A stretch of 64,000 nt of DNA from Bdellovibrionota bacterium (GTDB lineage: Bacteria; Bdellovibrionota; UBA1018; CAIPTA01; JAALKR01): positions 1,811,043 to 1,875,042 of the forward strand of contig CBDBMJ010000001.1 of NCBI GenBank assembly GCA_965207455.1. The letters are read 5' to 3'. The translations under genes and the position numbers were made by a program. Numbering within the stretch: the stretch's first letter is position 1; each line of letters starts with the position of its first letter. Positions 1 to 16,578 of this stretch are shown piece by piece. The notes below the pieces were generated by a model that saw only the letters and a list, made by a program, of their open reading frames with translations, had not been told where the DNA came from and made no database searches.

Positions 1-593
1 GTATTTGGATATTAGGTTTCGTTTCATAGTAGTTGGAGTTCAATTTCAGGGTTTGAGGAGTTAGTATTGTTATTTTGGGTTTTGGGCGGTGTTATGTTTC
101 CGCTACAAGTCAAGTTCAATCATTCGTTTTATGGGTATTGAGGGAGTTTAAATTTACGGAGGGCATCACTTTCTCGCTCCCACCTTTCACAAAGACAAAG
201 TTACTTCTTCTCACTGATATGCCTAAGGGTGTGTGTTTGTTCTTTAGGGAGGTGTGGTTGTGTTTCTTTTATCAGGCTCTGTGGTTTCATTCTTGTTTGG
301 ATCCTGGGAATCATTCCGACACTCCCCAAGACCACACCCCCGCTTCTTTCCTGATTAGGAGTTAAGCGTTTAGCGTGTGTGGTTTGTTTTGGTCCCTTCG
401 ACGACTGTTTTATTGACTCCTCTCTGAGAATCATTTCGACATATCTCAAGGAACACACTGACGATTCATAACCTTACTTATTGGATTCCCGCACTAAAGA
501 TTACAGAAAATAATTATATCTTTCACAAAAAGACATTAAGAAATTTATAAATGAAAAAATCAGTTCGACTCGCCGTCGCACATGAGGCACATA

Positions 594-2198
594 TCACTTC
601 TGTTGAGATTTGCTCAACTCTTCAATTAAAGAATCGATCATGGCTAGAAAAAATTCTTTATTTTCCTTTTTTTCACTTGAACTTTTCTTATCAATTATTA
701 CATCTCCAATTTTTGATTTCACATTCTCTAAATCTATTTTTATGTTTTTCTTTCTTTCTTCTAAAGATATTTTCAGCTTCTTGTAGTAATCAGAAGTAAA
801 AAACCTCATCTTTGAATCGCGACAAATAAAATAAGCTAGAATCATTTGAATGGTTTTTTGTCTTTCAGATTCATCCCGTTTTTGATCCGCCTCATCACGT
901 CGACTGTGTATTTTTTTCTCGCTTTCTAAATTAGACACGAAAACTGGGCTGACGAAATAACTAGACACATGAAAGTTCTCTTTACTTTCCATTGCCTCAG
1001 CTACAGTGGCTGAAAATTTAAGATGTAAAAATGCGATAAATGTGCGTGAATGTACATCTGGAAAAATTCCTTCGATTATATTCGAGAGATTCACATTAAA
1101 CTTGTCTTTATTTTCAAGATCAGCTCTTTGAGTTTTATAATATTCTTCAAAATAATTCAAAATAAAACAAGAAGAAAAATTATCTTTATTCCCTATCTCT
1201 ACTGTCCACGTTGGAGGAAAATAATATTTCCAAAATTCATACTCCATTCGATGGTCGGCCGACAAGATGGGGAACAGAACATCAAAAAAATTTTTCATGT
1301 AAATAAAGTACTCTCTTCTCTCTTTTTCATCTTCAGGTAATTTTGATTTTCCTTCACTTTCAAGCGATATTAATTTTTTTTCAACTTCACCAATGTGCCC
1401 CTCAAGCCGTGAGAATAAATATTCTATCTTGTCGTTCCTTGAAACAAGCTTCGTGATTGAAGATTTAAAAAGTTCTCTGCCAAAAAGGGCCCAACAATTT
1501 AAATTTCCGTATTTTCTTTGCCCCTCAAGGCTCTCTTTATTCCAGTTAAGCGATTCTAACAATATCTTATGAATTGAATCAGTGCTTCGATTTTTAATAT
1601 TTTTAGAGTAACCTTTTAATAAGGCGCTTAATCCAGTTGAAATTTTAGCATTTATAGAAAATTTAATTTTAGATATGAAGAGTTTTGTTATCTCTAATTC
1701 GTTGGGGATTATTTCTTTGTGCCAAAAAGAAATCCATGCCTCTGTCGCTTGCCTGTGTTCTTTAGATTTTATTTTTGAAAAATCTGATGAATCTAAAAAT
1801 AAAAATTCAAGTTCACCACGTTCCCCTATGGAAAATTTTATTACCTCTTTTAGCATCTTACAAAACACAATAATCAAATATAAGGCTGCAAAAATAAGCA
1901 AAATCTTCAAGCAAACATTAACATCCGTTCCAGAAAAAAATGCAAAAAGGAATATAGAGGGGATCGATAGTGAAAAAAGATAGCTTACTTGTAAGATGTT
2001 TTTATTAAAAATAATTTTATCAAAATCATCATCTTTGTCTGAAATATTTGCATAAGATTTTATTAAAAAAGGCATAAAAATTGCAAGAATACCTAAAATA
2101 ATGGTTTGGAAAAGCGAGGGATCAAGATATTCTAAAAATGAATCTACCTTTTTAAAAATTCCATCTGGCTTTAGGCAGATGCATTCACGCCCTGTCAT
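594..2198 (-). CDS. Hypothetical membrane-anchored protein (534 aa), AT-rich accessory gene
   Basis: Long ORF; about three N-terminal hydrophobic segments, then a charged helical-looking region; no motif recognised. Confidence 0.7.
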   Translation of the reverse strand: MTGRECICLKPDGIFKKVDSFLEYLDPSLFQTIILGILAIFMPFLIKSYANISDKDDDFDKIIFNKNILQVSYLFSLSIPSIFLFAFFSGTDVNVCLKILLIFAALYLIIVFCKMLKEVIKFSIGERGELEFLFLDSSDFSKIKSKEHRQATEAWISFWHKEIIPNELEITKLFISKIKFSINAKISTGLSALLKGYSKNIKNRSTDSIHKILLESLNWNKESLEGQRKYGNLNCWALFGRELFKSSITKLVSRNDKIEYLFSRLEGHIGEVEKKLISLESEGKSKLPEDEKERREYFIYMKNFFDVLFPILSADHRMEYEFWKYYFPPTWTVEIGNKDNFSSCFILNYFEEYYKTQRADLENKDKFNVNLSNIIEGIFPDVHSRTFIAFLHLKFSATVAEAMESKENFHVSSYFVSPVFVSNLESEKKIHSRRDEADQKRDESERQKTIQMILAYFICRDSKMRFFTSDYYKKLKISLEERKKNIKIDLENVKSKIGDVIIDKKSSSEKKENKEFFLAMIDSLIEELSKSQQK

Positions 2199-2624
2199 TT
2201 AACCTTCAATTCTGACTCATGGCTTGATTTCCAAATTATAGCTCATTCGATTATTTCTTTATAAATAGATTTAATTCATTTTAAATCAACAACACTTCAT
2301 CTATTTACTTTATAAACTAAAATAATTTATTTTTCACTATAATTCTATTAAGAAAATAGATTTTTCAGCAATACACTAAACTGTGTATAATGATCTTTCT
2401 CGAAAAAGACTTCTTTAACTTAGGATCATACTACCAAAACTGCCTCTATGAAACTAAGATAAAATCACTGCAACCTACTCTTTTCACTGCCATTGCACTC
2501 TAAGAGTAGATATGCTTGGCGTATTGCCGGGGTGTTAGAGGAATTTAGTGGTATTTATAATATTTAAATTTATCGTTTGATCTTTCTGATGTACCTCAAG
2601 AGCACACCCTCGATTCTTTCCGGC

Positions 2625-2849
2625 TTAGTAGTCAAATTTATAAACGCACCAGTTATTGTTTTCGTTTCTCTCGCTACCAGCACCAGGGAAACACTCATAC
2701 TGTTGAGCAAGAACATTCTCTGCTGCTTGAGCAACAACTTTTGATTTATAATAGCCTAAGATGACCCAATTTTTAAGGTTTGGGTACTGTTTTTCCCAGT
2801 ATTCTTTGCGACCTTTCGGATCAGTTGTCATGCCTACTCTACAAGCCAT
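2625..2849 (-). CDS. Small protein, possibly a minimal GIY-YIG-like domain
   Basis: 74 aa; RVGMTTDPKGR resembles YIGxTxDxxxR and AQAAE resembles the catalytic Glu helix; AAAGGAAA RBS-like sequence upstream. Confidence 0.5.
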   Translation of the reverse strand: MACRVGMTTDPKGRKEYWEKQYPNLKNWVILGYYKSKVVAQAAENVLAQQYECFPGAGSERNENNNWCVYKFDY

Positions 2850-2910
2850 ATTTAATCATTTCCTTTCGACTCAAGTGATACAATATAACTGAACTTTCAC
2901 GCAGACAAAA

Positions 2911-5061
2911 CTACTTCTTCCCACTGATTGCCCTTCGGGCAAGCGGTCTTTCTTTTGCCATATAAAGCGCACTTTGCCAAAGTGCTAGGGCTTTTTGGAT
3001 CATTTCTTTTGCTTTTTTGGGGTAGAGGTGTTTTACGTCTTTATCATAATCTTTCGTTTTATAGCGATACAGGATCGCCAGATTGTCCTCTGGATTAAGA
3101 GCTGCCTCTAAATTATTAACATATTTATTTCTATTCCAATTATTAGTATTAAGCCTAAGCAAAAATTCTTGTCCAATTAATTTCACAAGCATATTTGTAT
3201 GTATAAACATATAATCACTGTCTTTATACGATGAGTGCAAAATATTCCTTCCCAACATGGTGTTTTCTGCAGATATACCCATCATACCAAGCATAATGGG
3301 CATAATATCTATACTGGAAGTTACCTCTTGCACAGTTTTTTGTTTTTTAAACCGGAACTGAGGAGAATAAATAATCAATGGAACCTTTAAAAAAGAAAGG
3401 TTATGATATGTGAACCAATCAGGAACATGCTCGGCTCCTTTCAAACTTATCCCATGATCACCCACTAATACAAAAACTGTTTTATTATAATCCTTTCGCT
3501 TCTTAAAATCTTCAAAAAATACTCGTAGGCTGTAATCAGCAAACCGCAAAGCATTAAGCTCCTCAATGGAAGAAAAGCCATTTTTTTCTAATGTTTTTTT
3601 ATCTACATGAATCGACATAAAGCCTAAATTCTCTTTGGGAATAACATAAGGAGGATGGTGGCTCGCTCCTTCTAAAAAAGTGAGAAATGGTTTGTTTTGA
3701 TTAATTTTTCCTGCTCCATGCTTTTCCTCAATAATACGCTGTACCTCCTTATATAAATGGAAGTCAGAAACCCCCCAAGCATTTACTTCCGGGTATTTAT
3801 AATTTTTTTTTTCAAGCAAGTGGATATTATCTATGTTTTTCACTGTTGTCTTGTAGTCTAACCAAGTGAAATCATGAGATCTAAAAAAATATTTTTCATG
3901 CTTTTTAAGGGAATTTGCTAGGCTTGGCAATGGATAAGAGGGAATTTCAAGAAATGGAATGCTCGCTATTATGGAAAAAACACCATGAATACTAGATGGA
4001 GAGTAAACTGAAGCATGGAAATTTTCAAAAAATATGGCCTCTCTTCTTCGGATAAGTTCCTTCAAAAACGGAGTAGGATTTAGTGGATTTTTCAATGTCT
4101 TATAATCAGAATAAGATTCCAGAAAAATGAATACAATATTGGAATTGGGATCAAGATAAGGCGTCTTTCTTATGGGCCTTTTAAATAAATTGAGTATCTT
4201 TGCTAGATCTACAGACTCACCAGGTTCACCACCCTTTAGTGCTCTAGGATCAGGGGCTTTTAATTTAAGATGACCTTGGACTCCTGCAAATACTTTAAAG
4301 AAGTCACTAGGAAAAAAAGTAGCTTTTTCTTTTATTTTAGTGTCAAGTAAATGTTGAAAAGTATTAAAGCTCATGGGCAAATAAAATGGATCTTGCAATG
4401 AATAACTACGATAAGAATTAAACGGTCGCCTAACATCAATACCAATGACTCCTAAAAATAAAAACTCCAAGCATAATATGGAATAAAGAGCCTTTCGCTT
4501 AGGTAAATAAGAAGTGGTTGTAATCCGATTAAACGACTGAAAACCAAACCTGTCAAATAAACCCTTACCTGTAAATACAAGCCTCTTTAAAATAAAATAT
4601 AAGAAACAGGAAAGGAGCAGCCACCCGAAAACAATCCATACTATAGGATAGGATTTTATCACCATCGATAGAACAGCCAGTGGGCTTTTTAAGATGTAAA
4701 TGCTATCATAACCCAATCTTTTCTCCGTATATCCGTATGTGCCAAAATCAATGAGAAAAAACAAAAATATGAACGAGAAAAGAAAGGTATGAAAAAACAG
4801 AACATTCTTATTGCTATAGATATATTTTTTAGGAAATAAATAATCTCGCCAGAAAAAAGCTAAGCACGGCATGGAAAATAGAAGACTCCAACGCAGATCA
4901 AATCTAGCACCATAGAATAAGCAGTTCAGCAATGCATTCTGATTGCGGAAAAGAGTGCTCAGATCAGCTGAAAAATAAAACAGCATAATAAAGCGAAAAA
5001 CCTGCTGTACAAGAAAAAACAACAAGATAATTTTTATGCAGGAATACAACCTCATGTTCAT
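2911..5061 (-). CDS. LTA synthase family / sulfatase-fold membrane phosphotransferase
   Basis: N-terminal TM helices with GARFDLR; NIVFIFLES, SHHPPY, LRFAD, TVFVLVGDHG, VPLIIYSP and SSIDIMP motifs. Confidence 0.85.
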   Translation of the reverse strand: MNMRLYSCIKIILLFFLVQQVFRFIMLFYFSADLSTLFRNQNALLNCLFYGARFDLRWSLLFSMPCLAFFWRDYLFPKKYIYSNKNVLFFHTFLFSFIFLFFLIDFGTYGYTEKRLGYDSIYILKSPLAVLSMVIKSYPIVWIVFGWLLLSCFLYFILKRLVFTGKGLFDRFGFQSFNRITTTSYLPKRKALYSILCLEFLFLGVIGIDVRRPFNSYRSYSLQDPFYLPMSFNTFQHLLDTKIKEKATFFPSDFFKVFAGVQGHLKLKAPDPRALKGGEPGESVDLAKILNLFKRPIRKTPYLDPNSNIVFIFLESYSDYKTLKNPLNPTPFLKELIRRREAIFFENFHASVYSPSSIHGVFSIIASIPFLEIPSYPLPSLANSLKKHEKYFFRSHDFTWLDYKTTVKNIDNIHLLEKKNYKYPEVNAWGVSDFHLYKEVQRIIEEKHGAGKINQNKPFLTFLEGASHHPPYVIPKENLGFMSIHVDKKTLEKNGFSSIEELNALRFADYSLRVFFEDFKKRKDYNKTVFVLVGDHGISLKGAEHVPDWFTYHNLSFLKVPLIIYSPQFRFKKQKTVQEVTSSIDIMPIMLGMMGISAENTMLGRNILHSSYKDSDYMFIHTNMLVKLIGQEFLLRLNTNNWNRNKYVNNLEAALNPEDNLAILYRYKTKDYDKDVKHLYPKKAKEMIQKALALWQSALYMAKERPLARRAISGKK

Positions 5062-5130
5062 TTTTCCATCATAGCTTATAAAATGATTTTCTCACACTGA
5101 CACCTCTCTGATTAATAAACTCAGACCCAT

Positions 5131-5147
5131 TGTCTAATTTTCAAACA
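5131..5147. repeat. Palindromic motif copy TGTCTAATTTTCAAACA in the divergent sulfatase/pilA intergenic region
   Basis: Resembles TGTCYGA-N3-TCARACA copies at 10804, 13410, 19244 and 20896, with a similar CCCAT left flank. Confidence 0.5.
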
Positions 5148-5352
5148 CCAAAAACTGCCAAAACAATATACAATAAAAAAACAATGTACCGTGTATTATC
5201 TTAATACCCTTTAACGTGAGAAATATTTTATTAAAAAAAGTAAAAAAAACTTTAGTTTTTTATACAAACGTCCGTTTAATCTATATGCAACAAGGTTAAC
5301 TTGTTGTATAATTAAAAGAGTAACAAAAATCAAAAAAGGAGAACTAAAGATT

Positions 5353-5937
5353 ATGAAAATATTGAAAACAAACAAGGGTTTTACCCTAATTGAATTAATG
5401 ATCGTTGTGGCAATTATCGGAATTTTGGCTGCCATTGCGGTACCAAACTTCCAAAGTTATCAAGCGAAAAGTAGACAGTCAGAGGCTAAAATCTCTCTAG
5501 CAACTGTTCATAGCCAAGAGATCGCTTTTAGCGCAGAGTTCGGCGGCTATGTCACTGCACTAGACGCTATTGGTTATATACCAAGCACTTCCGGTGCAGC
5601 TGTTGCAATAGCCAGTACTAGAGGATCGCAGTACTATACCGTTGGTTGGACTGGTGATGCCGCACCTAATTCTATGCCTGCCAATGCTCCATACTCATTC
5701 CTTACAATCCGTTATTGGAGAAACTCAGGGACTAATTCAGGAGATGATGGTGCTACAGGGTGCAAAAATGGTGCTGTTCTTAGCGATGCATTATCGGCAA
5801 TCAACACTGCAAAAGTGAACGGAATAACCCAAGCCTTTACTGTCGGTGCTGCAGGAAAACCCGGAACTAACAATGCTTGCGATGAGTGGACTATAAATGA
5901 AAATAAAGTTCTTGCCAACAACGTACGTAACCTATAA
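5353..5937 (+). CDS. pilA: Type IVa major pilin
   Basis: [26 protein letters not shown] class III signal, then [12 protein letters not shown]-terminal Cys pair; AAGGAG RBS. Confidence 0.95.
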
Positions 5938-5964
5938 CGTCAAGATTCGTACAGTCTAAAAACG

Positions 5965-6014
5965 AAAAGCCAGAACACTCGAAAGCGAAACGCTTCCCTG
6001 TTCTGGCTTTTTTT
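5965..6014 (+). terminator. Rho-independent terminator after pilA
   Basis: Stem AAAAGCCAGAACA / TGTTCTGGCTTTT followed by a T tract. Confidence 0.8.
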
Positions 6015-6059
6015 ATTCTGTCACCCCCATAACACATACAGTGTATCCTATAAACACAA

Positions 6060-6767
6060 ATGAAAATCATCAAACACTCAAAAACCTACCGTGTAAACTT
6101 CCTCCTCTTTCTTCTCGCCCTAATCACCGTCAGCCTATACCAAGAACAACGCCCCCACTTTCCCCTAAAAGATAAAACAACCTTTACCTTCAACGAAGGC
6201 TTCCCCTCCTTTTCCCCAGAATCCATACGCCTCTTAAGTTTTGGCTACCGCTTTGTCTGGAGTAGCCTCCTCTGGATCCGCTTCCTCCGCCACACACCTC
6301 CCAAAAGCATGGGATCCGCAGAAGTAAGCTGGATCTTCGTGGACCTAAACGCCATCTCCGTAATCGATCAAGACTTTTCCCCCGTCTATACCCACGGCGC
6401 ACTCTTCCTCTCCGTCATCACCGAAGATAAAAACGGAGCAAGACTCCTCCTAGAAAAAGGATCGAAAAAATACCCCAACTCCCTGCGAATACATTCTGCC
6501 CTAGCCTACCACTACCTCTTTGAACTCAAGGACCGCAAAAAAGCAGCCCAACAATACCAAATAGCCTCCCGGATTCCAGGAGCACCAGACTACTACGCCC
6601 TCCTTGCCGCAACCACCATGCAAAAAGAAGGGAACACAATGGCAGCTATTGCCTTCTTACAAGATATGCGAGAAAATGCAAAAGACCCCAAAGTACGAAA
6701 AAAGCTCCTACAGAAAATACACAACCTAGAAATGGGCTCAACCGAAAGAAGCACCTATGAAAAATAA
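6060..6767 (+). CDS. TPR-like pilus accessory protein (Myxococcus PilG-like)
   Basis: N-terminal TM; SSLLWIR and ARLLLEKGSKKYPNS TPR-like helices; lies between pilA and the ABC genes. Confidence 0.7.
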   Translation: MKIIKHSKTYRVNFLLFLLALITVSLYQEQRPHFPLKDKTTFTFNEGFPSFSPESIRLLSFGYRFVWSSLLWIRFLRHTPPKSMGSAEVSWIFVDLNAISVIDQDFSPVYTHGALFLSVITEDKNGARLLLEKGSKKYPNSLRIHSALAYHYLFELKDRKKAAQQYQIASRIPGAPDYYALLAATTMQKEGNTMAAIAFLQDMRENAKDPKVRKKLLQKIHNLEMGSTERSTYEK

Positions 6768-7677
6768 ACCAGCCCTAGAATTTATCAATGTCTCCAAAAC
6801 ATACCGCTCCGGATTCCTCGGCGAAAAAAAACAATCCCTAAAAAACTTGACCCTCTCCGTACCCACCGGCTCAGTCTTTGGCTTCCTCGGCGCTAACGGC
6901 GCTGGAAAAACAACGACCATAAAAATCACCCTCGGCCTTCAAAAACCCACGTCAGGCGAAGTAATCGTCCTCGGAAAAAGCAACTCTAGCAATAAAGCCA
7001 AAGCCCTTATCGGCTACCTACCCGAACGACCCACCTTTCATCTGGATCTTACTGGCAACGAATTCCTAAACTTCCACCGTAACCTCTTCGGCAACCGCAT
7101 CCAAAATAAACCCCAACTCTCTAACTCCCATCTGCTAGCTCTTGTTGGTATCCCACAAACCGCCTCCACACTCCTGCGAGAATTCTCCAAAGGCATGCTC
7201 CAACGAATCGGCATCGCCCAAGCCCTCATCAATTCTCCGGATTTGGTCATTTTGGACGAACCCATGAGCGGACTCGACCCCATCGGAAGACGCGACGTAC
7301 GCGAAATCATCTCCCAACTCGCACACGAAGGCAAAACCATCTTCTTTAGCAGCCACATCCTAAACGACGTCGAAAGCCTCTGCGACCAAATCGCCTTCCT
7401 CCAATCCGGCGAACTCAAAGTCCACGGAAAAATAAACGACATCCTGAAAAAAAGATCGTCAAAAGAAATCATCTTCAAAAACATCTCAGCCCACACCATT
7501 AAAAACTCCCCCATCCTACAAAACTCCACCCAATCCGGCGACTCCTGGACCCTACTCCTCCACAACCCCGAACACACCCAATCCACCCTCGAAACCATCT
7601 GGCAACAAAAAGGGGAACTCATCTCCGTAACCAACCAACAAATCAGCCTAGAAGAAGAACTCTTCCCATCACTATGA
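6757..7677 (+). CDS. pilH: ABC transporter ATP-binding protein (PilH-like)
   Basis: Walker A GANGAGKTT, signature FSKGMLQR, Walker B VILDEP, H-loop SSH; pil operon context. Confidence 0.85.
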   Translation: MKNKPALEFINVSKTYRSGFLGEKKQSLKNLTLSVPTGSVFGFLGANGAGKTTTIKITLGLQKPTSGEVIVLGKSNSSNKAKALIGYLPERPTFHLDLTGNEFLNFHRNLFGNRIQNKPQLSNSHLLALVGIPQTASTLLREFSKGMLQRIGIAQALINSPDLVILDEPMSGLDPIGRRDVREIISQLAHEGKTIFFSSHILNDVESLCDQIAFLQSGELKVHGKINDILKKRSSKEIIFKNISAHTIKNSPILQNSTQSGDSWTLLLHNPEHTQSTLETIWQQKGELISVTNQQISLEEELFPSL

Positions 7678-8453
7678 AAAAATACCTACAATCCGCTACC
7701 CTAACCATCGCCCTCACCACCCTCAGAGGCTTCACCCGAGACCGCATCTTCTATGCCGTCCTCCTCGTCGCCCTACTCCTCATCGCCTTCTCCTACTCCC
7801 TCGCCGGACTCACCTTCATCGGCTCCTATAAAATACTCATGGACTTCGGCTTCACCGCCATCTCCCTCTGCGGAATCCTCATCTCCATCTTCGTAGGCAT
7901 CATCTCCGTATCCAAAGAAATCGAAAACAAAACCATCTACACCATTCTCGCTAAACCCGTCCACCGCTCCCAATACATTCTGGGCAAATACCTCGGCTGT
8001 AGCCTCGTAGTCCTCATCGCCCACCTAATAATGTCCCTCTCCCTCCTAACCGTCATCTGGATCATCGGCATAAAAACCTCCACCGGCCTCTACCCCTGCT
8101 TCTACCTCATGACACTCGAAAGCCTTCTTATACTCTCCATCGCCCTGTTCTCCTCCATCTTCTCCTCCAGTGTTCTTGCCACCTGCCTCACCCTTTTGTT
8201 ATTCCTTATTGGAAGGAGTGCTTACTTCTTTCATTCTGCCTCAGAAAAAGCTGAAGGACTCATGCGCTATGTTTTTCGGATTCTCTACGACATTCTCCCT
8301 AACCTCGAACGCTTTAATCTCCGAGAAATGGCTGCCTACTCCAAGCCCTACCCCGACACCCTTCTCCTCGACAGCACCATCTACGCCCTCGCCTACACCA
8401 CCCTCTTTCTCACCCTAAGCACCATTCTTTTCATCCGACGGGACATGCCATGA
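7674..8453 (+). CDS. pilI: ABC-2 type permease (PilI-like)
   Basis: Multiple TM helices; KEIENKTIYTILAKPVHRSQYILGKYLG motif; ATGA overlaps with both neighbours. Confidence 0.85.
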   Translation: MKKYLQSATLTIALTTLRGFTRDRIFYAVLLVALLLIAFSYSLAGLTFIGSYKILMDFGFTAISLCGILISIFVGIISVSKEIENKTIYTILAKPVHRSQYILGKYLGCSLVVLIAHLIMSLSLLTVIWIIGIKTSTGLYPCFYLMTLESLLILSIALFSSIFSSSVLATCLTLLLFLIGRSAYFFHSASEKAEGLMRYVFRILYDILPNLERFNLREMAAYSKPYPDTLLLDSTIYALAYTTLFLTLSTILFIRRDMP

Positions 8454-9241
8454 TCGACCCCCAAACCATCATCCAAATCGCCTTCATCACCTTTGGTTTC
8501 ATCATCGGCAGCTTCCTCAACGTCTGCATCTCCCGCATGCCCAAAGAAAAAAGCGTGGTCTTCCCCCCCAGCGCCTGCATGACTTGCCAAAAAAACATCC
8601 CTTGGTACTGCAACATCCCCATTCTCAGCTACCTCTTCCTCCGCGGCCGCTGCCTCTACTGCAAATCCCGCATCCCCTTCCGCTACCTGCTAGTCGAATG
8701 CATCACCCCCGCCCTATTCCTCCTCTGCCTGCCCTACCCCTATATCCTCTGGCCCTTTTACGTTTACTTTCTCTCCTCCCTCGTCATTGCCACCTTTATC
8801 GACCTCGAACACTGGATCATCCCCGACAAGATCACCCTCCCAGGTATCCCCATAGGAATCCTAAGCTCCCTCGTCCACCCCTACCCTTTTATTTTGGATT
8901 CTGTGCTTGGCATGATATTTGGTGGCGGATCTCTCCTAGTCATTGGCATGATCTACGAGAAGATGAAAAAAACAGAGGGCATTGGTGGTGGCGACATAAA
9001 ATTTCTCGCCATGGGCGGCGCCTTCCTCGGCTTCAAAGGCATCATCCTCACGCTTCTTATTGCTTCCATCACTGGCATGATTATTGGACTCATCACCATG
9101 ATCAAAACAGGAAAAGGCGGCAAAACTGCCATCCCCTTCGGTCCCTTCCTCTCCGCTGGAATGCTCATCACCTTTATCTGGGGCACCCAAATCTGGGACT
9201 GGTACCTCGCCCTCACCAACCCTCAATCCCTCTTCCAATAA
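8450..9241 (+). CDS. pilD: Prepilin peptidase / N-methyltransferase, copy 1
   Basis: GSFLNV, two CxxC pairs, IDLEH and GGGDIK catalytic Asp motifs, IPFGPFL. Confidence 0.95.
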   Translation: MIDPQTIIQIAFITFGFIIGSFLNVCISRMPKEKSVVFPPSACMTCQKNIPWYCNIPILSYLFLRGRCLYCKSRIPFRYLLVECITPALFLLCLPYPYILWPFYVYFLSSLVIATFIDLEHWIIPDKITLPGIPIGILSSLVHPYPFILDSVLGMIFGGGSLLVIGMIYEKMKKTEGIGGGDIKFLAMGGAFLGFKGIILTLLIASITGMIIGLITMIKTGKGGKTAIPFGPFLSAGMLITFIWGTQIWDWYLALTNPQSLFQ

Positions 9242-9294
9242 CACACCCAACAAACCCACGGCGCAATGCCGCACGCAACAAGCTGGACACGTCA

Positions 9295-10731
9295 TTAAAA
9301 TTTTCTAGAAAATTTCCTAAACGATTTAACCAGCTCATAAGTAAGAAACGCGTTTGCTACTATCTGCAAAAAATTCCAGAAACCAAACTCACCTACAGGC
9401 AATTTAATGGGAATCACTAAACGACCAAACAGGTCAAGACAATCCCAAAAACCAACACAACACTCAAAACGAAACATATGGATAAAAAGAAATACAATAT
9501 TAATAGCTAATTGCCAAACAAAAACCCTAAAAAAAGCTGTACCAAAATAACTAAAGAGCTTCTCAATAGATAAAGTAAATTTATCCTGAAGATTGCCACC
9601 CGTCTTCCCCAGTTCATGGAGATATTTATCATGCTCTTTCGTATGAAACATCACGGCAGATATCGTATCATTTTGTTTTATGGCGAAGTGCTTTAATTGC
9701 AAGAAAGTTTCTCTGCTAAATGCATTCTCGCCTTCAATATTTATTAATCCTCTTTTTTCGTTTATATATTTAAGTGTGTTTTCTTCATCAAGAGATTCAT
9801 TCCCTCCAGTAGAAAAATCCGTTCCTTCGATAACGCAATTATCTATCTGAAGTACAAATTCTTTAGTAAAAAAAATATCTCCTAAAAAAATATTTTTTAT
9901 ATTTCCCGACAACTTAAAATGACTCCTAAAAAAAGAAAGGGTGAAATCCAATCGCTCACGAAACTCACTCATTGTAGTGTCTAATTTATTAAAAATACAT
10001 TCCCTGAAATTACAAGACCCGAGGAATTGCGTATTAAAAAATCTTGCATCATCTCGAAAATAAGATTTATAAAATCCAGCATTTTCTGCAAATCTTGTTC
10101 TCTCAAAAGAAACTTTCGATAAAAATATAGTCTCAACAAAATCTACTTCTTTTTCAAACTCTACCTTTTTAAAAAAAGAATCTCCTGTAATAATAGTATT
10201 ACTAACGCTCACTGGTTTCAGAAATTTTTTATCAGACAAATAAATGCCACCTATAATAATGAAATTATCAAAACATACCTTTCTTGAAATTTTCGCACTA
10301 TCCAATATAATATCTCCCACAATAATGCAATTATCTAAAGGCACATCCATTGAAATAAGTTCTTCAACATCAGACTGTCCTATATGAACGAATTTTTTCT
10401 TAGAATCTAGCTCTTCTTCCATGATAATAAATATTTTTTCAGAAAGGATTCCTTTATAATTAAAAATTTCTTTTATATGTGCGCTTATTTCAATCACCTC
10501 ATATTCAACACCATTAAAAACTACTTCTTGCGAGTTCAAGGAAGGATCGGAATACTTGTTTTTACTCTCATCTTCATAACGAAACTCTAACTTACCACTC
10601 GATTTATCAAAAGTAACATTGGTTAATCCCTCTCTATCAACCTTTGATATTCCGTATTTTACCTCGCTCGTTTCTTGTTCCATAAAATATATCTTACAAA
10701 ATACTATTGTAAAAAACAATTCTTTATTCAT
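9295..10731 (-). CDS. Pentapeptide-repeat protein with C-terminal TM region
   Basis: Periodic F-xx-x-F repeats (FKKVEFEKEVDFVETIFLSKVSFERTRF...); hydrophobic C-terminus; start may be MEQET at 10683. Confidence 0.75.
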   Translation of the reverse strand: MNKELFFTIVFCKIYFMEQETSEVKYGISKVDREGLTNVTFDKSSGKLEFRYEDESKNKYSDPSLNSQEVVFNGVEYEVIEISAHIKEIFNYKGILSEKIFIIMEEELDSKKKFVHIGQSDVEELISMDVPLDNCIIVGDIILDSAKISRKVCFDNFIIIGGIYLSDKKFLKPVSVSNTIITGDSFFKKVEFEKEVDFVETIFLSKVSFERTRFAENAGFYKSYFRDDARFFNTQFLGSCNFRECIFNKLDTTMSEFRERLDFTLSFFRSHFKLSGNIKNIFLGDIFFTKEFVLQIDNCVIEGTDFSTGGNESLDEENTLKYINEKRGLINIEGENAFSRETFLQLKHFAIKQNDTISAVMFHTKEHDKYLHELGKTGGNLQDKFTLSIEKLFSYFGTAFFRVFVWQLAINIVFLFIHMFRFECCVGFWDCLDLFGRLVIPIKLPVGEFGFWNFLQIVANAFLTYELVKSFRKFSRKF

Positions 10732-10796
10732 CTATCACCTTAAAAAAAGAGTAAGTGTTTCTCACAAAGAAACCATTAAGTTCTTGGAAAACTAAA

Positions 10797-10985
10797 TATC
10801 TATTGTCCGATTATCAGACATCGCACCAACAGGAACACGCCCCAGAGCAGACCTCATAATCCCTCCAGCAACAAAGCCTACCTCTATTCACACCTCTCAC
10901 AACACACAGACAAACCTCGGAACTCTTCTTGACTAACCCATGGCTTTGGTTTATGTTAAAACATAATCAATCGGCTAATTAACAG
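10797..10985 (+). repeat. Repeated ~190-bp element A (palindrome, C/A-rich spacer, sigma70 promoter)
   Basis: Alignable by eye along its length with 20889-21078; partial copies at 13410 and 19244. Confidence 0.8.
10929..10957 (+). promoter_or_regulatory. Sigma70-type promoter
   Basis: TTGACT-N17-TATGTT; TTGACT is also kept in the second copy at 21021. Confidence 0.65.
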
Positions 10986-11010
10986 AAGGCGTAAGAGAGG
11001 GAACTGAAGA

Positions 11011-11181
11011 ATGAGAAAAAAAAATAACAGCGCAACGAAAAAAGAAGACCCTGAAGAAGTTCAGAGAAGCCTTGAACAGCTCATTATTGACATAAAAAAG
11101 AAGCGACCCAAGTTCCGAAAATTCTCAAAAGAGCAGCGAGAATTCTTTATAAGGGAAGCACTAGAAGAGTATGATTCGTAG
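11011..11181 (+). CDS. 56-aa small protein not in the ORF track; RHH/CopG-like C-terminal helix
   Basis: MRKKNNSATKKEDPEEVQRSLEQLIIDIKKKRPKFRKFSKEQREFFIREALEEYDS; GAGG RBS; homologous relic at 19132-19236. Confidence 0.65.
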   Translation: MRKKNNSATKKEDPEEVQRSLEQLIIDIKKKRPKFRKFSKEQREFFIREALEEYDS

Positions 11182-11189
11182 TACCCATT

Positions 11190-12059
11190 GTGTTAGCAAG
11201 TAAATTAAAAAGAAATAAGAAATACAGTCTTTCTCAAGGAATGATCTTTGAGATACCCAGTTTAAAACTTGATTTTGATAAAGCAAAAAAAACCATTAAA
11301 GAGCTTTATCCCGAGGCAAGTCTTGATAATGTAAAGTATGGACTCATATTAACACAATCATGTGACCTCGTTCATGATAAGTTTTTTGAGCAACAAGGTG
11401 GAACTCTAGATAAAGATGAAAAAAATAACTACAAATATCGACTTCCAAAAATTCCTCACATTACATTTTGCTTGTTGGAGCCAATAAATTCTTATATTTC
11501 AGAATTTTTAAGTAAAAACGAATCAAAATTTCTATTCAAAATAGAAGACCCTGTTCCCACTAACAAAACCACTAATGTCCTTTCCTCGAGCAAAGCATTA
11601 AAACTAGTTTTGAGAGAATTTGGCAGGTTCTTTCAAAATAATCACCCTTGGGCATTTTTCATCACAATTCAATCAAAGGATAGAAAAGAATACTACTTTG
11701 TTAACTTAACAAAAATTCTCCCTCTAAGAATAATTCACTATAGCTCAATCCTCCAGAACTCTAAATTTCAGTTAACAAATGAATTTTCTAATAAATTAGC
11801 ATGGAAATTGGCGACCCTATATGGGAGAATCGGGACTAAGGATTATTCAAGAAAAGCAATCACAGAAATCATCAAGGATATTCTTGAAATCTCCCAAAAA
11901 GAGTTTTCTAGCTTAACCGATGATTCTATAGACATAGAACCTTTAGACTTTGATGCTCTTAAAAAAAATCTAGAAAGAGAACGTAACTTAAAAAAAAGAA
12001 ATGAAATCTTACAAGATCTGCTAGAGGAACACTCCATAACAAATATGAAAGGCATATAA
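11190..12059 (+). CDS. Hypothetical protein with LTQSCDL motif (289 aa)
   Basis: LSQGMIF...GLILTQSCDL...LATLYGRIG pattern; AT-rich. Confidence 0.7.
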   Translation: MLASKLKRNKKYSLSQGMIFEIPSLKLDFDKAKKTIKELYPEASLDNVKYGLILTQSCDLVHDKFFEQQGGTLDKDEKNNYKYRLPKIPHITFCLLEPINSYISEFLSKNESKFLFKIEDPVPTNKTTNVLSSSKALKLVLREFGRFFQNNHPWAFFITIQSKDRKEYYFVNLTKILPLRIIHYSSILQNSKFQLTNEFSNKLAWKLATLYGRIGTKDYSRKAITEIIKDILEISQKEFSSLTDDSIDIEPLDFDALKKNLERERNLKKRNEILQDLLEEHSITNMKGI

Positions 12060-12092
12060 GACCGAAGAACTCATACACTACATTTTTCGGCT

Positions 12093-12606
12093 CATCTACA
12101 CCATTCTCGCCAAACCCGTCCACCGCTCCCAATACATTCTGGGCAAATACCTCGGCTGTAGCCTCGTTGTCCTCATCGCTCACCTAATAATGTCCCTCTC
12201 CCTCCTAACCGTCATCTGGATCATCGGCATAAAAACCTCCACCGGCCTCTACCCCTGCTTCTACCTCATGACACTCGAAAGCCTTCTTATACTCTCCATT
12301 GCCCTGTTCTCCTCTATCTTTTCCTCCAGCGTCCTCGCCACTTGCCTCACCCTTCTACTATTCCTCATCGGAAGAAGCGCCTACTTCTTTCACTCCGCCT
12401 CTGAAAAAGCCGAAGGATTCATGCGCTATGTTTTTCGGATTCTCTACGACATTCTCCCTAACCTCGAACGCTTTAATCTCCGAGAAATGGCGGCCAAACC
12501 CTACCCCGACACCCTTCTCCTCGACAGCACCATCTACGCCCTCGCCTACACCACCCTCTTTCTCACCCTAAGCACCATTCTTTTCATCCGACGGGACATG
12601 CCATGA
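12093..12606 (+). pseudogene. pilI: 5'-truncated copy of the pilI permease
   Basis: Lacks the first ~260 bp of 7674-8453; MAAYSKPY becomes MAAKPY. Confidence 0.85.
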
Positions 12607-13394
12607 TCGACCCCCAAACCATCATCCAAATCGCCTTCATCACCTTTGGTTTCATCATCGGCAGCTTCCTCAACGTCTGCATCTCCCGCATGCCCAAAGA
12701 AAAAAGCGTGGTCTTCCCCCCCAGCGCCTGCATGACTTGCCAAAAAAACATCCCTTGGTACTGCAACATCCCCATTCTCAGCTACCTCTTCCTCCGCGGC
12801 CGCTGCCTCTACTGCAAATCCCGCATCCCCTTCCGCTACCTGCTAGTCGAATGCATCACCCCCGCCCTATTCCTCCTCTGCCTGCCCTACCCCTATATCC
12901 TCTGGCCCTTTTACGTTTACTTTCTCTCCTCCCTCGTCATTGCCACCTTTATCGACCTCGAACACTGGATCATCCCCGACAAGATCACCCTCCCAGGTAT
13001 CCCCATAGGAATCCTAAGCTCCCTCGTCCACCCCTACCCTTTTATTTTGGATTCTGTGCTTGGCATGATATTTGGTGGCGGATCTCTCCTAGTCATTGGC
13101 ATGATCTACGAGAAGATGAAAAAAACAGAGGGCATTGGTGGTGGCGACATAAAATTTCTTGCCATGGGCGGCGCCTTCCTCGGCTTCAAAGGCATCATCC
13201 TCACGCTTCTTATTGCTTCCATCACTGGCATGATTATTGGGCTCATCACCATGGTCAAAACAGGAAAAGGTGCCAAGACTGCCATCCCCTTCGGTCCCTT
13301 CCTCTCCGCTGGAATGCTCATCACCTTTATCTGGGGCACCCAAATCTGGGACTGGTACCTTGCCCTCACCAACCCTCAATCCCTCTTCCAATAA
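12603..13394 (+). CDS. pilD: Prepilin peptidase, copy 2 (intact)
   Basis: 263 aa; differs from copy 1 at two residues (MIKTGKGG vs MVKTGKGA). Confidence 0.93.
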   Translation: MIDPQTIIQIAFITFGFIIGSFLNVCISRMPKEKSVVFPPSACMTCQKNIPWYCNIPILSYLFLRGRCLYCKSRIPFRYLLVECITPALFLLCLPYPYILWPFYVYFLSSLVIATFIDLEHWIIPDKITLPGIPIGILSSLVHPYPFILDSVLGMIFGGGSLLVIGMIYEKMKKTEGIGGGDIKFLAMGGAFLGFKGIILTLLIASITGMIIGLITMVKTGKGAKTAIPFGPFLSAGMLITFIWGTQIWDWYLALTNPQSLFQ

Positions 13395-13606
13395 CACTCA
13401 AAACACCCTTGTCCGATTTTCAAACATCGCACTAACAAACACCCCTCCCAAAGCAAACCTCACAATATTCACACAGCTCAACACAGCAGGTACCAATATT
13501 GCTAGCAGCACGTCTCCTTATATTTTGATATAATTTCATTATGCCGTGGTCATCCGTAAAACAATTTGCTATAAACGTTTTAGTGTATAAATTTACAGGA
13601 TAAACA

Positions 13607-14389
13607 ATGCAAAGCAAACTGGTAAAAAAATGTAAAAACTCAAACCTAATTGAGGCATCGCTGACTCTTCTTGGAGAACCCAAAAAATACCAAAAAGATT
13701 CCCACCTTGGATTCAGGGAACATATTAAAAAATACCTGAGAGAGGAAAATAACTTATCCAACTTAAAATCAGAACGCATCAATAGTGCTCGCCTAACCAG
13801 AGAAGACGAAAACGGAATGGTCCTACCCTATTTAGACAGGCAGTTTACTATAAAAGAGAAAAACAAAACTTACCGAACAGGCCACCAAATCGCAGGATTC
13901 CATACAACTCACGAAGGCGATAATAACCGATACACAACTTATGACAGTGAAATCGCCCCGTATATAGAAAGTTTTATAGAAAAAATAAACGAATTCAACA
14001 ACCGATTTAATGTTATAGAAATGGTTTTCTGCTATGTAAATAATTTTCTATTCCCTCGGAATGGCTTTATGCTGGACAAATATTTTGACCTTGCCATTAG
14101 AACAGGGATCGGCTCACAACATGGAGTCCAAGAGACCTTGTTCTCTTTTTTATATCCTCTGGATGGAAACACCGTGAAAATATCACTCCGCGGATACCCC
14201 CATGATAAGGATCAAATTCGTATCGTAGTTGAAACAACTGGTATAAAAAAGATTGAACCCACATCCATTTCCGATTACAGGAAAATAATGGAGGAATCTA
14301 AAATCCTAAAGGATATAACAAAAGCTCAATTTTTCAACCTTACCAGCGACGAAACAAAACATAAAATACTAGGAGCAAAATATGAGTAA
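13607..14389 (+). CDS. TIGR04255-like protein
   Basis: LIEASLTL near the N-terminus, central CYVNNF (RYIN-like), C-terminal FFNLTSDE; family call from recalled pattern. Confidence 0.5.
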   Translation: MQSKLVKKCKNSNLIEASLTLLGEPKKYQKDSHLGFREHIKKYLREENNLSNLKSERINSARLTREDENGMVLPYLDRQFTIKEKNKTYRTGHQIAGFHTTHEGDNNRYTTYDSEIAPYIESFIEKINEFNNRFNVIEMVFCYVNNFLFPRNGFMLDKYFDLAIRTGIGSQHGVQETLFSFLYPLDGNTVKISLRGYPHDKDQIRIVVETTGIKKIEPTSISDYRKIMEESKILKDITKAQFFNLTSDETKHKILGAKYE

Positions 14390-14879
14390 TCCCATCACAG
14401 CCGAACCAATGCTCCTTCCAAAAACAATTCATAGTGATGCGAAAGGCAACATTAAAGACGACAGCTACTTCTATAGCGAAGCAGACCTCCCCACCCTTCT
14501 CTCTCAACCACTACAGGAGCAAAATTCTCTTTCTGAATCTCCCGAAGCAATTAAAAAATCTGTACGGGATTTTTCTTTTGACACAGAAAAAAACAATCCT
14601 GTAACCATCACATCTTCCGTAGTTGGAAAATGGAATAATTACGAAGAACTCTCTGATTTATTGGCAGGGATTAATTATAATGAATTTTGCAAGCGAGCCA
14701 CTACCAGTGAAATGTACTGGAAACCAATCATTGAAGAACGCCTGGAAGAACTGTATCCAGAAAATATGTCTGAAGAATTAAAGAAACTAAAAAGTATAAA
14801 TAGAGCAACACGAGATATATTAGAGAAAATCAAAAAAGGAACCAAGAGAAATTTTTTTAGAAAAATTTTTCGCAAATAG
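14382..14879 (+). CDS. Hypothetical protein (165 aa)
   Basis: Overlaps the upstream gene; GGAG RBS; operon-like spacing. Confidence 0.65.
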   Translation: MSNPITAEPMLLPKTIHSDAKGNIKDDSYFYSEADLPTLLSQPLQEQNSLSESPEAIKKSVRDFSFDTEKNNPVTITSSVVGKWNNYEELSDLLAGINYNEFCKRATTSEMYWKPIIEERLEELYPENMSEELKKLKSINRATRDILEKIKKGTKRNFFRKIFRK

Positions 14880-14894
14880 AGACTACTGAAGTAA

Positions 14895-15581
14895 ATGGCA
14901 ACGTTAAACTGTGGAGAAAATAAGTCTCCAGCATCTCATTACAGAAATCACATATCAGATTTAAATATTCTTTTCTTCAAAAAATTTTGCGCATACTGCT
15001 GGACAGCCGATAAGGCAGAAACTATTGATCACTATAAGCCAAGGAAACATTTTCCCAATCTTAAAACTGAATTCAGAAATTTACTTCTTGTCTGTGCCAC
15101 GTGCAATTCAAAAAAAGGAGATTATCACCCCGAAGCAAAAAACAGAAAAATATATAAGGACGAAACGCATTACATATTCAATTGTCGCGAGCATGATATA
15201 GGAGAATTTATAAAAGTAAGCAACGATGGGAAGATCTCATCCAAGAAAAATTTACGGAAAGAACGAGAACAAGTTGCTTTTTTTATTCGGATATTTAATC
15301 TAGAAAAAACAGAAACGAAAAGTACAAGAAAGGAACACATAGAAATATTAGAAGCAACAAAAGAAGCGATGCAGTTGTTAAAAAATAGAGCTCGCTGTGA
15401 GAATAAGGCAAGCCTTGAACGGATTTTAGATACAAATATTGGGCTTATTGCTACCAGATTTTTATTCTTTCACCTTTTAAATTTAAAAATACCAAGCGAG
15501 TTAAAGGAAAGAATAGAAAAAAAGAGAAGAGAACTTCTATGCGCACAAAGACTAAACCCAATTATCTCAAAATTGATTTAG
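14895..15581 (+). CDS. HNH endonuclease
   Basis: CAYC...TIDHYKP...NLLLVCATCNSKKG Zn-finger HNH motif. Confidence 0.88.
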   Translation: MATLNCGENKSPASHYRNHISDLNILFFKKFCAYCWTADKAETIDHYKPRKHFPNLKTEFRNLLLVCATCNSKKGDYHPEAKNRKIYKDETHYIFNCREHDIGEFIKVSNDGKISSKKNLRKEREQVAFFIRIFNLEKTETKSTRKEHIEILEATKEAMQLLKNRARCENKASLERILDTNIGLIATRFLFFHLLNLKIPSELKERIEKKRRELLCAQRLNPIISKLI

Positions 15582-15693
15582 AAACTATTTGCAAGCTTAT
15601 CGATGTTGTTGTAATATCAAAGAAGGCTGGATGAAATGCAAACATTATTTTAAACTAGGAATAAACCCTAATTACTTCGGAGGAACGCGATGA
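15575..15693 (+). pseudogene. Relic 3' end of the proteasome-beta-like gene
   Basis: DLETICKLIDVVVISKKAG...KHYFK...NPNYFGG matches the end of 19371-20588. Confidence 0.8.
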
Positions 15694-15887
15694 CTGAAAC
15701 TAAAAAGACAGAAGAAAAGATACACAGACCATCCAAGGAGCATACCGTTGTAGATGATTCTGAGATAACTTTTGAAAAAGACCCCTACAAATACGGACAG
15801 AAAATAGGAAGAATAGCAGTGAGGGAAGCCTATATAAAAACTTTGAGAAAATTTCGTGATGCTAAAAAACTTCAAGCAAAGTCATAA
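15690..15887 (+). CDS. Small protein, paralogue of 20585-20824
   Basis: FEKDPYKYGQKIG vs FHDDPYEYGRQMA; same TTCGGAGGAA RBS context. Confidence 0.7.
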   Translation: MTETKKTEEKIHRPSKEHTVVDDSEITFEKDPYKYGQKIGRIAVREAYIKTLRKFRDAKKLQAKS

Positions 15888-15926
15888 GATGCACTCTCAC
15901 CAAACCTTAAACATGTGTAAATAATT

Positions 15927-16511
15927 ATGCTAAGATTCCCCTGGAAAAAAACCACCATGTTCTCCAAAGATCATTCGTCGAAACACCTCGACGAGATCCA
16001 ACTCCGCAACCGAAAAAACATCCTGAAAGTCGCAGCCATCCTCAGCCTCCTCCTACTCCTCTACCCCGTAATAAAAGAAAAAAGCTACCTCTTCTCCATC
16101 CAAAACCAAGCCCGCACCCTAACCAAAGAAATCCTAAACGCCAGACTCCAAGCCACCAAAACCCGCAACCCAACTTCCCTCACACTCCTCAACCCACAAA
16201 CATGGCAATACAACGAATTCCCACAAAAACACGACTGCGACGGAACACCCAACCCCAACACAAAAAAAAACCTCCCCTTCCCCGACTTCCAATGGCGCGC
16301 CCTCCTCCTCAAATCCAATAACCCCACCGGCATCGGCTCAGACATCCAACAACTCTGCTTCCACCCCATCCACGGCATCACCCTCAACAACCAAAATCTC
16401 TCCTCCCACCAACTCTTCCTACTCGTCTCACCACAAGAAAACACCAAACGACAAAACATCCAACAAATCATCCTCTCCAACTCCGGCATCCAAATCCAAC
16501 CCCTCCAATAA
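15927..16511 (+). CDS. Pseudopilin/FimT-like protein without a canonical prepilin cleavage site
   Basis: One TM helix then ARTLTKEILNARLQA and LCFHPIHG, FimT/GspH-like; same C/A-rich codon use as the pil genes. Confidence 0.5.
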   Translation: MLRFPWKKTTMFSKDHSSKHLDEIQLRNRKNILKVAAILSLLLLLYPVIKEKSYLFSIQNQARTLTKEILNARLQATKTRNPTSLTLLNPQTWQYNEFPQKHDCDGTPNPNTKKNLPFPDFQWRALLLKSNNPTGIGSDIQQLCFHPIHGITLNNQNLSSHQLFLLVSPQENTKRQNIQQIILSNSGIQIQPLQ

Positions 16512-16521
16512 AATAAGTATT

Positions 16522-16578
16522 TCACTGGACCTAAAAACTGTTGGCAAATCTGCTAATATTGCTGTAATATCAAAGAAA
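16522..16578 (+). pseudogene. Second relic of the proteasome-beta-like gene 3' region
   Basis: Translates SLDLKTVGKSANIAVISKK vs SPNLETICEPIDVAVISKK at 20454-20510. Confidence 0.65.

Follow-up and report, generated by a model that had tools for sequence, protein, structure and literature searches.

The window analysed here is a stretch of 64,000 nucleotides (C1:1,811,043-1,875,042) from contig 1 (C1) of a Bdellovibrionota genome of 2.38 Mb, which is assembled into three contigs and 94.7% complete; positions are counted from its first base, so that DNA to its left has negative coordinates. Its left edge falls in the right end of an AT-rich, 87-kb island of defence genes (~-64,000 to 23,400), and it contains a type IV pilus locus, pilA-pilG-pilH-pilI-pilD followed by a native gene that we call X, in which all genes except pilA are extremely rich in C and A at the third codon positions of the plus strand. 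Native genes at the opposite flank of the island carry the reverse bias, and the same mirror polarity tends to recur around individual slots of island cargo.

Genes were called with a purpose-written open reading frame (ORF) script, on which the gene counts below depend. The bias of each gene is given as its fraction of third-position C (C3) and as a polarity index, formed from log(C/T) + log(A/G) at degenerate third positions and signed to the plus strand (the C/A-rich pil genes are negative). The features of the locus are as follows.

1-308, plus strand: G/T-rich patch, delimited by hidden Markov model segmentation, in the right part of a mosaic linker that spans -709 to ~390
410-500, minus strand: copy of the ~90-bp repeat L, the last of 18 direct copies or part-copies found with nhmmer; a partial copy lies at 290-346
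594-2198, minus strand: AT-rich cargo gene (534 amino acids) without Pfam or PADLOC family
2625-2849, minus strand: ORF of 74 amino acids, no family
2911-5061, minus strand: sulfatase/LtaS-like membrane protein of ordinary polarity (-0.63)
5131-5147, plus strand: degenerate copy of the 17-bp palindromic repeat R
5353-5937, plus strand: pilA, type IV major pilin (Pfam N_methyl), C3 0.22
6060-6767, plus strand: pilG-like gene, C3 0.47, polarity -3.6
6757-7677, plus strand: pilH-like ABC ATPase, C3 0.53, polarity -3.7
7674-8453, plus strand: pilI-like ABC-2 permease, C3 0.65 (the genome maximum), with a T/G-rich patch at ~8170-8260
8450-9241, plus strand: pilD prepilin peptidase, C3 0.63, T/G-rich patch from ~8867
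9295-12059: cargo slot with a pentapeptide-repeat gene (9295-10731, minus), a copy of R (10804) and a gene of no named family (11190-12059, plus)
12093-13405, plus strand: direct duplicate of the 3' part of pilI (pilI') and of pilD, 96.9% identical to 7934-9252
13607-15581, plus strand: three-gene cargo slot that ends with an HNH nuclease gene and has a weak C/A shift
15927-16511, plus strand: native gene X
16589-23333: rest of the right array, with a cytosine methyltransferase, beta/cII-like genes and R repeats
31656-33476, plus strand: lepA, a control of ordinary composition

Besides the degenerate copy, R occurs in the right array at 10804, where it has a C/A-rich tail, and at 13410, 19244 and 20896. 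The best NCBIfam match of pilA, typeIV_PilA_Myxo, falls under its cut-off, and the pilG-like gene is named by presumed analogy with Myxococcus pilGHI. X has no Pfam or NCBIfam family; it was found in each of 10 other genomes from the order and in none of 20 outside it, lies directly 3' of pilD in the same-order relatives' loci examined, and is possibly an order-specific pilus accessory protein.

Extreme third-position bias of the pil block

A preliminary description of this DNA had reported opposite G and C counts on the two sides of pilA, and a recount of the letters gave identical values (18 G and 4 C at 1-60; 30 C and 6 G at 7741-7800; 27 C and 2 G at 16381-16440). As it had noted, the bias resides at third codon positions: in pilG, pilH, pilI, pilD and X these are C 0.58, A 0.25, G 0.06 and T 0.11, compared with C 0.22, A 0.32, G 0.15 and T 0.31 in lagging-strand genes. 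In the same five distinct skewed genes, two-fold pyrimidine codons end in C in 79% of cases and two-fold purine codons in A in 95% (35% and 72%, respectively, in lagging-strand genes), and four-fold sites are C 0.67, A 0.20, T 0.09 and G 0.04. Among 1,922 genes of at least 100 codons, whose 99th percentile of C3 is 0.35, the seven highest values all belong to the pil genes, their duplicate and X (pilI 0.65, pilI' 0.63, pilD 0.63, X 0.62, second pilD 0.61, pilH 0.53, pilG 0.47), so that the many unlinked, equally C3-rich genes that would have spoken against a local effect are not there. By polarity the most skewed gene of the genome is X (-5.7; C3 0.62, T3 0.03). Amino-acid usage has drifted as well, upwards for T (1.46), Q (1.43), H (1.32) and P (1.15) and downwards for V (0.58), G (0.79) and W (0.79). 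The skew of the block is real: the pil proteins are intact, and the bias is therefore not a sequencing artefact.

Features that had been listed as unskewed fall into two groups. pilA (polarity -0.54) and lepA (+0.08) are indeed ordinary, but the AT-rich cargo right of pilA is weakly shifted in the same sense as the pil genes, past the lagging-strand baseline (nine plus-strand genes against 198 AT-rich lagging genes, p=0.002); cargo of the left array shows no strand difference (p=0.34). The bias is local: orthologues at 14 relatives' loci lack a skew of C over G and A over T. In a tree of PilG-H-I (13 rows), the proteins group with those of the only same-family genome (support 100/99) on an ordinary branch; judged from these sequences, PilGHI looks vertically inherited and recoded in place.

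A defence-gene island with its own direct repeats

Of 46 island proteins scanned, 22 matched PADLOC models at 1e-8, including one probably spurious, partial match of a Sel1-repeat protein. The matches comprise CBASS cyclases with E1-E2 and JAB, two ABC-three-component sets, ShosTA, Avs2, PDC-S06, PDC-S39, PD-T7-4, AbiEi, a methyltransferase and others. Most genes face outwards from the pilin locus, with 36 of 46 on the minus strand left of pilA and 18 of 20 on the plus strand to its right. Two adjacent cyclase-like genes accompany E1-E2 and JAB in the CBASS locus (stretch L018:2524-4516); IS66 (L019:16738-19045) and IS21 (L018:7069-9347) are inserted in the array on the strand opposite to the cargo, and further IS66 copies lie at C1:657 kb and 1,521 kb. 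Parts of the window recur in the left array: the 74-amino-acid ORF has further full copies at -54487 and -27295 (83-89% identity) plus fragments, the 3' tail of the sulfatase gene recurs seven times, and 486 bp of the linker at -709 to ~390 are found again 15 kb further left (BLAST, 97% identity).

Repeat L is specific to this lineage. With nhmmer it gave 18 matches at E<=2e-7, all on the minus strand and all within C1:1,746,940-1,811,542, out of 20 genome-wide (the two weak extras include one outside the array); exact matches in genome, metagenome and viral collections numbered 0, and none of 10 genomes of the order holds it. For 11 of 13 cores, the distance to the stop codon of a minus-strand gene just before them is -1 to 214 bp. 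Twenty folds of 10 copies revealed no hairpin (z -1.6 to +1.6) and Rfam gave no match in 144 kb, so that readings of L as attC, structured RNA or an Rfam family, which find no support in either, were set aside. Read in one frame, L shows codon-like variation over ~16 codons. L holds a dif-like core that shares the inner bases of both dif arms; outside the island this motif, which was defined after the repeat had been seen, occurs on C1 once, at dif itself. Compared with dif, three of 13 cores have a 5-bp spacer and four have altered XerD-side bases. XerC and XerD homologues are encoded at C1:1,058 kb and C1:178 kb and score slightly under the equivalog cut-offs and above that of the tyrosine-recombinase subfamily. 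The integron integrase model TIGR02249 found no protein over its cut-off of 265 in this 94.7% complete genome (best 82 bits in six frames and 128.5 bits on the XerD-like protein). On their minus strand, the best R copies carry the nine conserved bases of the dif XerC arm without the XerD arm; R could be an operator or a degenerate Xer site.

In relatives, pilA-G-H-I-D-X form one block between pilB/T/C and what we take to be a ubiE-aroC-like cluster (the neighbour names being our assumption). Here those neighbours lie at C1:543-547 kb (pilB/T/C) and 324-329 kb (downstream genes), and the block has therefore moved into the island. In the nearest relative the contig (G001:C16) breaks 188 bp upstream of pilA, a site that may be variable there too.

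Mirror polarity of the island and of its cargo slots

Of all gene runs in the genome, the pil block has the lowest polarity (-2.6 to -3.8) and the native flank at the opposite end of the island the highest (-70,800 to ~-64,000; +1.4 to +1.9, against at most +1.4 elsewhere); the two genome-wide extremes coincide with the island's two flanks under all 12 settings of scan window and GC3 filter. The left flank includes a plus-strand gene whose sense strand is G/T-rich, so the bias depends on the strand and not on transcription, in agreement with the preliminary description, whose geometry also holds: on either side, G/T enrichment lies on the strand whose 5'->3' direction leads to the variable region. 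The evidence that had been given for the left side needs qualification. Bases 1-60 are reversed as counted, but they form part of a 378-bp G/T patch (-69 to 308) in a mosaic linker in which other patches, 70-500 bp to the left of position 1, are C/A-rich. The opposite polarity is nonetheless genuine, being carried by native genes 64-71 kb left of the window and by the right halves of linkers. Polarity does switch left of the window, though at no single point, and the proposal of one centre is not supported because the pattern repeats around individual cassette slots over ~65 kb.

Non-coding DNA is affected too. Right of pilA its keto skew fades over ~20 kb (-0.26, -0.20, then -0.12 at 16589-23333 and -0.04 beyond), and the value for 5938-17000 (-0.21) is lower than that of all 1,449 blocks elsewhere. 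In the left array, segmentation resolves linkers into C/A patches followed by G/T patches, and the right half is the more keto-rich in 10 of 11 linkers of at least 350 bp (three short linkers were left out), compared with 55% of 92 control spacers, whose mean half difference is -0.001. The p value of this comparison (4e-4) is overstated, because the 11 linkers were delimited by hand after the pattern had been seen and several share homologous pieces, so that perhaps half are independent; the test is suggestive, not clean. Taken slot by slot, cargo tends to have a G/T-rich left flank and a right flank that is less G/T-rich or C/A-rich. R repeats were rejected as the switch points.

Duplicate and mosaic alleles

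The pilI'/pilD duplicate (12093-13405) and its source (7934-9252) align over 1,319 columns with 35 differences, 27 of them at third positions and clustered, and share an identical tract of 661 bp. The direction of the differences fits the slot pattern: in the pilI part that follows a slot the second copy is more C/A-rich (transitions 16:6), and in the pilD end that precedes the next slot it is more G/T-rich (0:6; p=0.002 for the contrast). pilG, pilH and X are single-copy in the genome. Third positions with G or T are clustered into patches in pilH, pilI, pilD and X (permutation p 0.0002-0.02), and no such clustering was found in pilG (p=0.96).

One public run holds many alleles of the region. 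At a likeness of 82%, 276 of its contigs match the region and vary from it at 841 places, including 611 transitions, counts that include repeats and possibly other organisms. Its contigs cover 30 of 30 bins of 1-20000, some with 0 differences, and one allele is more C-rich still. The T/G-rich pilH patch at ~7100-7250 is C/A-rich in a co-occurring allele: one contig has C or A at all 15 differences in 7131-7252, among the 40 variant positions listed. The metagenome contigs searched contain no close DNA relative of pilG, and besides itself its protein has four relatives, only 50-58% identical.

Copies of island sequences were also considered as a record of the mutational direction. The sulfatase-tail and 74-amino-acid ORF copies, weakly keto-directed (C>T 26 and A>G 28 against T>C 18 and G>A 13), were not used as a polarised spectrum because they offer no true ancestor; changes in the L copies run the opposite way (T>C 20 and G>A 7 against C>T 14 and A>G 5). 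Joints at the edge of L (491/492 to 2625/2909) in the public run were not counted, as their sides are shorter than 30 bases and may stem from other copies.

Nature of the substitutions and repair genes

On the plus strand, T->C and G->A each shift by ~2 logits (sevenfold), in the same proportion as in the genome's normal contrast between leading and lagging strands (0.59 and 0.50). The C/T shift is 1.9-2.25 logits in all eight neighbour classes; it has no neighbour preference, the footprint by which a sequence-specific single-stranded DNA (ssDNA) deaminase would be recognized. Deamination of exposed DNA (C>T, A>G) had been proposed as the cause. Both transitions do shift, but the account is incomplete: GC3 rises from 0.35 to 0.64 and A is drained at four-fold and Ile sites, at four-fold sites to C, so that cytosine deamination alone is insufficient.

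In Escherichia coli the frequency of both transitions doubles when A and C are on the lagging-strand template, according to the available portion of Foster et al. (10.1101/346874); this fits prolonged exposure of that template, whatever the lesion. The same portion reports that loss of Nfi is not mutagenic in E. coli. Absence of endonuclease V, whose gene was not found in this genome, was accordingly given little weight as a cause of A->G, the more so since alkyladenine glycosylase is encoded. Fused AddAB and ComEC are encoded as well; the apparent AddAB fusion consists of AddB-like and AddA-like parts in one 1,951-amino-acid frame (C1:1,688,964-1,694,819). A diversity-generating retroelement or retron was rejected because no reverse transcriptase (PF00078) was found in the genome and the variation is not adenine-specific, hitting T, G and A sites.

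The replication terminus lies elsewhere

The pilin locus had also been proposed as a terminus or fork-fusion site (between 400 and 6000), which the data do not support. dif has a single match, at C1:721,621, 1.09 Mb from the locus and near the maximum of cumulative skew and replichore polarity at C1:745,047; genes around it have polarity near the usual 0.5, without amplification, and the island shows only a secondary switch. A loose dif scan is uninformative on its own; the pattern used occurs in 24 of 31 genomes of the class and its reversed control in 5 of 31. dnaA lies on contig 3, among genes that we take to be dnaN-, gyrase- and mnmE-like.

The secondary switch is broad, plus-strand polarity being mostly leading-like at ~1,545-1,750 kb and lagging-like from 1,816 kb. 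Its left part is weak and mixed: at 1,545-1,745 kb GGGNAGGG counts are 21:18, against 90:26 and 30:81 in the main replichores. In a KOPS-type comparison of an inversion with a second origin, the polarity of octamers in the training replichores reached 84% at most, and a search for DnaA-box clusters gave none. Relative to the nearest relative the genome has been rearranged, and synteny (20 contig starts of ~50 contigs compared) is too broken to place an inversion. The weak opposite replichore polarity at C1:1,542,000-1,750,000 begins at an insertion-sequence fragment, and this segment is likely an inversion or a scrambled region.

Comparison with described systems

The closest described element is GRINS, a class of duplicated regions with intense third-position skew and no known mechanism, for which the accessible part of the report also mentions single-copy skewed regions (PMC8256042). 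Against the definition of that class (a duplicate of >500 bp at >80% identity; GC and TA skews that each average >0.15 in absolute value over 150-nt windows), the pilI'/pilD pair is long and similar enough (1,319 columns, 96.9%), as the single-copy pilG, pilH and X are not; its GC skew is 0.40 in both copies and its summed skew the highest of 117 duplicated regions, but its TA skew, 0.14 in both copies, stays under 0.15. The TA skews of pilG (0.23), pilH (0.25) and X (0.39) exceed that value in genes that are not duplicated. GC and TA skews are anticorrelated in the copies (r = -0.27 and -0.29), whereas in GRINS the correlation is typically, though not obligatorily, positive. The likeness to GRINS, as far as the accessible text goes (PMC8256042), extends to kilobase-scale third-position skew of genes that stay intact, sudden reversals of sign along one strand, a long and nearly identical duplicate whose tracts resemble gene conversion, and drift towards T, Q, H and P; that text does not contain a mirror image around an array of defence cassettes. 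The locus works like a GRINS, yet we do not file it as one because the TA threshold is narrowly missed and most skewed genes are single-copy.

Normal replication asymmetry, as described in the available portion of 10.1101/346874, resembles the locus in the sign of the change (G/T, then C/A), in the two transitions involved and in their similar proportion; here, however, the effect is three- to tenfold stronger, is limited to stretches of ~20 kb (right) and ~7 kb (left), and repeats per slot. Sedentary chromosomal integrons and integrase-less arrays share the co-oriented cargo, the many defence genes and a direct repeat after stop codons. This array differs from integrons in that no integrase scores over the cut-off, the repeat does not fold, units are often multi-gene, linkers are long mosaics and host sequence is duplicated with the units.

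Some elements integrate at dif-like sites. In the part of the Acinetobacter report that is accessible (PMC12907356), Xer/dif module islands likewise have extra chromosomal dif-like cores in a cargo island, and XerC/XerD homologues are present here; in contrast to those modules, all cores in our array are direct and both arms diverge from the genome's dif. Three cores have 5-bp spacers, several are changed on the XerD side and conservation extends ~60 bp further; the Xer sites of this array are putative.

Two eukaryotic precedents match the direction of the bias. Yeast shows strand-coordinated mutation at resected breaks, with G/T on the strand whose 3' end is at the break, and in animal mitochondria deamination of the heavy strand yields G/T on the long-exposed strand and third positions that are C/A-rich with G near 0.05. 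The present case concerns a bacterial chromosome, lacks a deaminase context signature and has C about threefold over A at four-fold sites. The literature searched (most subscription papers and supplements lay outside the search) contained no account of mirror-polar skew around a cassette array.

Origin of the polarity

We tentatively favour, at a little short of an even chance, recurrent recombinational processing at cassette slots that exposes the strand running towards the slot. The pilA-pilGHID-X block would lie in a hot spot of 87 kb that repeatedly gains and exchanges defence genes, with the conserved DNA that flanks each variable slot serving as a homologous anchor. Recurrent breakage or gaps at the slots, resection (possibly by the fused AddAB) and RecA-type repair would keep one strand, the one whose 5'->3' direction leads to the slot, single-stranded for much longer than a lagging-strand template normally is; it would gain A->G, C->T and further changes to G, and therefore G/T would accumulate on the plus strand left of a slot and C/A right of it. 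Long-resident anchors such as pilGHID and X may be near saturation, and young or often replaced genes (cargo, probably also pilA and the sulfatase gene) would be little marked. The old left neighbours, pushed 64 kb away by growth of the array, would keep a weaker relic, and short T/G-rich patches in the pil genes may be conversion tracts from other alleles or marks of downstream slots. Composition, locality, polarity at the scales of island and slot, the array and the allelic mosaic are observed; breaks, single-strand exposure, chemistry and order of events are what we infer from them.

Several observations weigh against this explanation. Besides that dependence on inferred steps and the hand delimitation of the linkers described above, pilA and the sulfatase gene are nearest to the supposed centre and yet ordinary, so that their frequent replacement has to be assumed, and X, the most skewed gene, is the outermost one, past which the skew drops off steeply. 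All five R repeats have negative keto skew to their left and to their right. Taken as a whole, the non-coding DNA of the left array is unremarkable (keto skew -0.005 to +0.043), near zero because its linkers are mosaics of both signs. The drain of A to C is unexplained by deamination, two uracil glycosylases and MutS are encoded, and no Y-family polymerase or second DnaE was found in the genome. Finally, replication models explain the replichore-scale switch at the island more directly.

Such a model, in which forks stall or converge in the island and prolong exposure of the lagging template at each generation, is a lesser but serious candidate, whether as a second fork-meeting zone or as a head-on conflict with strongly transcribed pilA combined with an inversion breakpoint. 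It draws on the change from leading-like to lagging-like polarity across the island, on a local signature that looks like the normal strand contrast scaled up, and on the orientation of genes away from the centre, head-on to converging forks; a process acting at every generation would also saturate most easily. Yet the real terminus, 1.09 Mb away, shows no amplification, the segment at 1,545-1,745 kb has weak polarity of both signs, the broad switch may have been left by an inversion in a rearranged genome, and one fork trap cannot alternate polarity per slot. About equally probable, in our estimate, is a strand-biased, error-prone step at the anchors that needs no chromosome break, as in GRINS-like gene conversion or natural transformation with a preference for one donor strand beside heterologous cargo. 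Since transformation can take up either strand, a mirror polarity would need a directional rule. ComEC and type IV pili are present, the seven sulfatase-tail copies and the pilI'/pilD duplicate look like additive, anchor-dependent insertions, the differences within the duplicate are clustered and mostly silent, and both the amino-acid drift and the one-strand sign changes recall the published GRINS (PMC8256042, accessible part). Part of that drift, however, stems from the comparison genomes being richer in GC; pilG, pilH and X occur in one copy each, and no error-prone polymerase was found. Somewhat less probable still is a reading in which L repeats are degenerate Xer sites of an integrase-less array, whose abortive cleavage would cause recurrent breaks, capture of defence genes beside the pilin locus and the slot-centred signature.

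The remaining explanations account for less of the evidence. Import of the whole block from an unsampled relative with extreme strand-specific codon usage, the left signal being coincidence, would suit its detachment from the usual neighbours and the abrupt end of the skew after X; it is improbable, given that the tree places PilGHI with the same-family genome, that cargo and spacers on the right have the same polarity, that the left flank is the opposite extreme of the genome and that 188 genes of the nearest relative (~1/5 of that genome) span only -2.0 to +0.6 on the same index. A G-quadruplex upstream of Neisseria pilE reportedly promotes recombination, and selection for a G-rich, C-poor minus strand (G 0.67 and C 0.04 at four-fold sites) that forms G-quadruplexes or R-loops and promotes recombination would explain why A is drained as well as T; we consider it very improbable, as the shift affects almost all silent sites across 4.5 kb regardless of context, which suits mutation better. 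An artefact of assembly or base calling has a negligible chance: although the stretch was found in a single public run, which may be the source sample, the bias keeps to codon position, the proteins are still 45-59% identical to their orthologues, and the contigs of that run cover the region as described above.

Strand skew in bacteria is normally chromosome-wide and modest; here it is several-fold stronger, tied to a recombination hot spot and of definite geometry. With young cargo, older linkers and saturated anchors, the locus provides a natural time series, and a store of defence genes with species-specific repeats but without an integron integrase is a candidate route of gene capture. It also offers a testable rule for the skews of GRINS, for which the accessible part of the original report gives no mechanism (PMC8256042). 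Were the Xer-site reading true, break and recombination hot spots would be readable from sequence alone, and GRINS skews would obey a geometric rule, with G/T on the strand that runs towards the variable site. Regions of this kind can mislead terminus calls, detection of alien genes by codon usage and estimates of synonymous rates.

Elsewhere in the genome, isolated short genes at C1:917,139, 759,628 and 428,402 have polarities of -2.3 to -2.9, and a 170-bp piece of array linker recurs at C1:237,123-237,294 and on contig 3 (36,805-36,969), in each case beside small secreted-protein genes.

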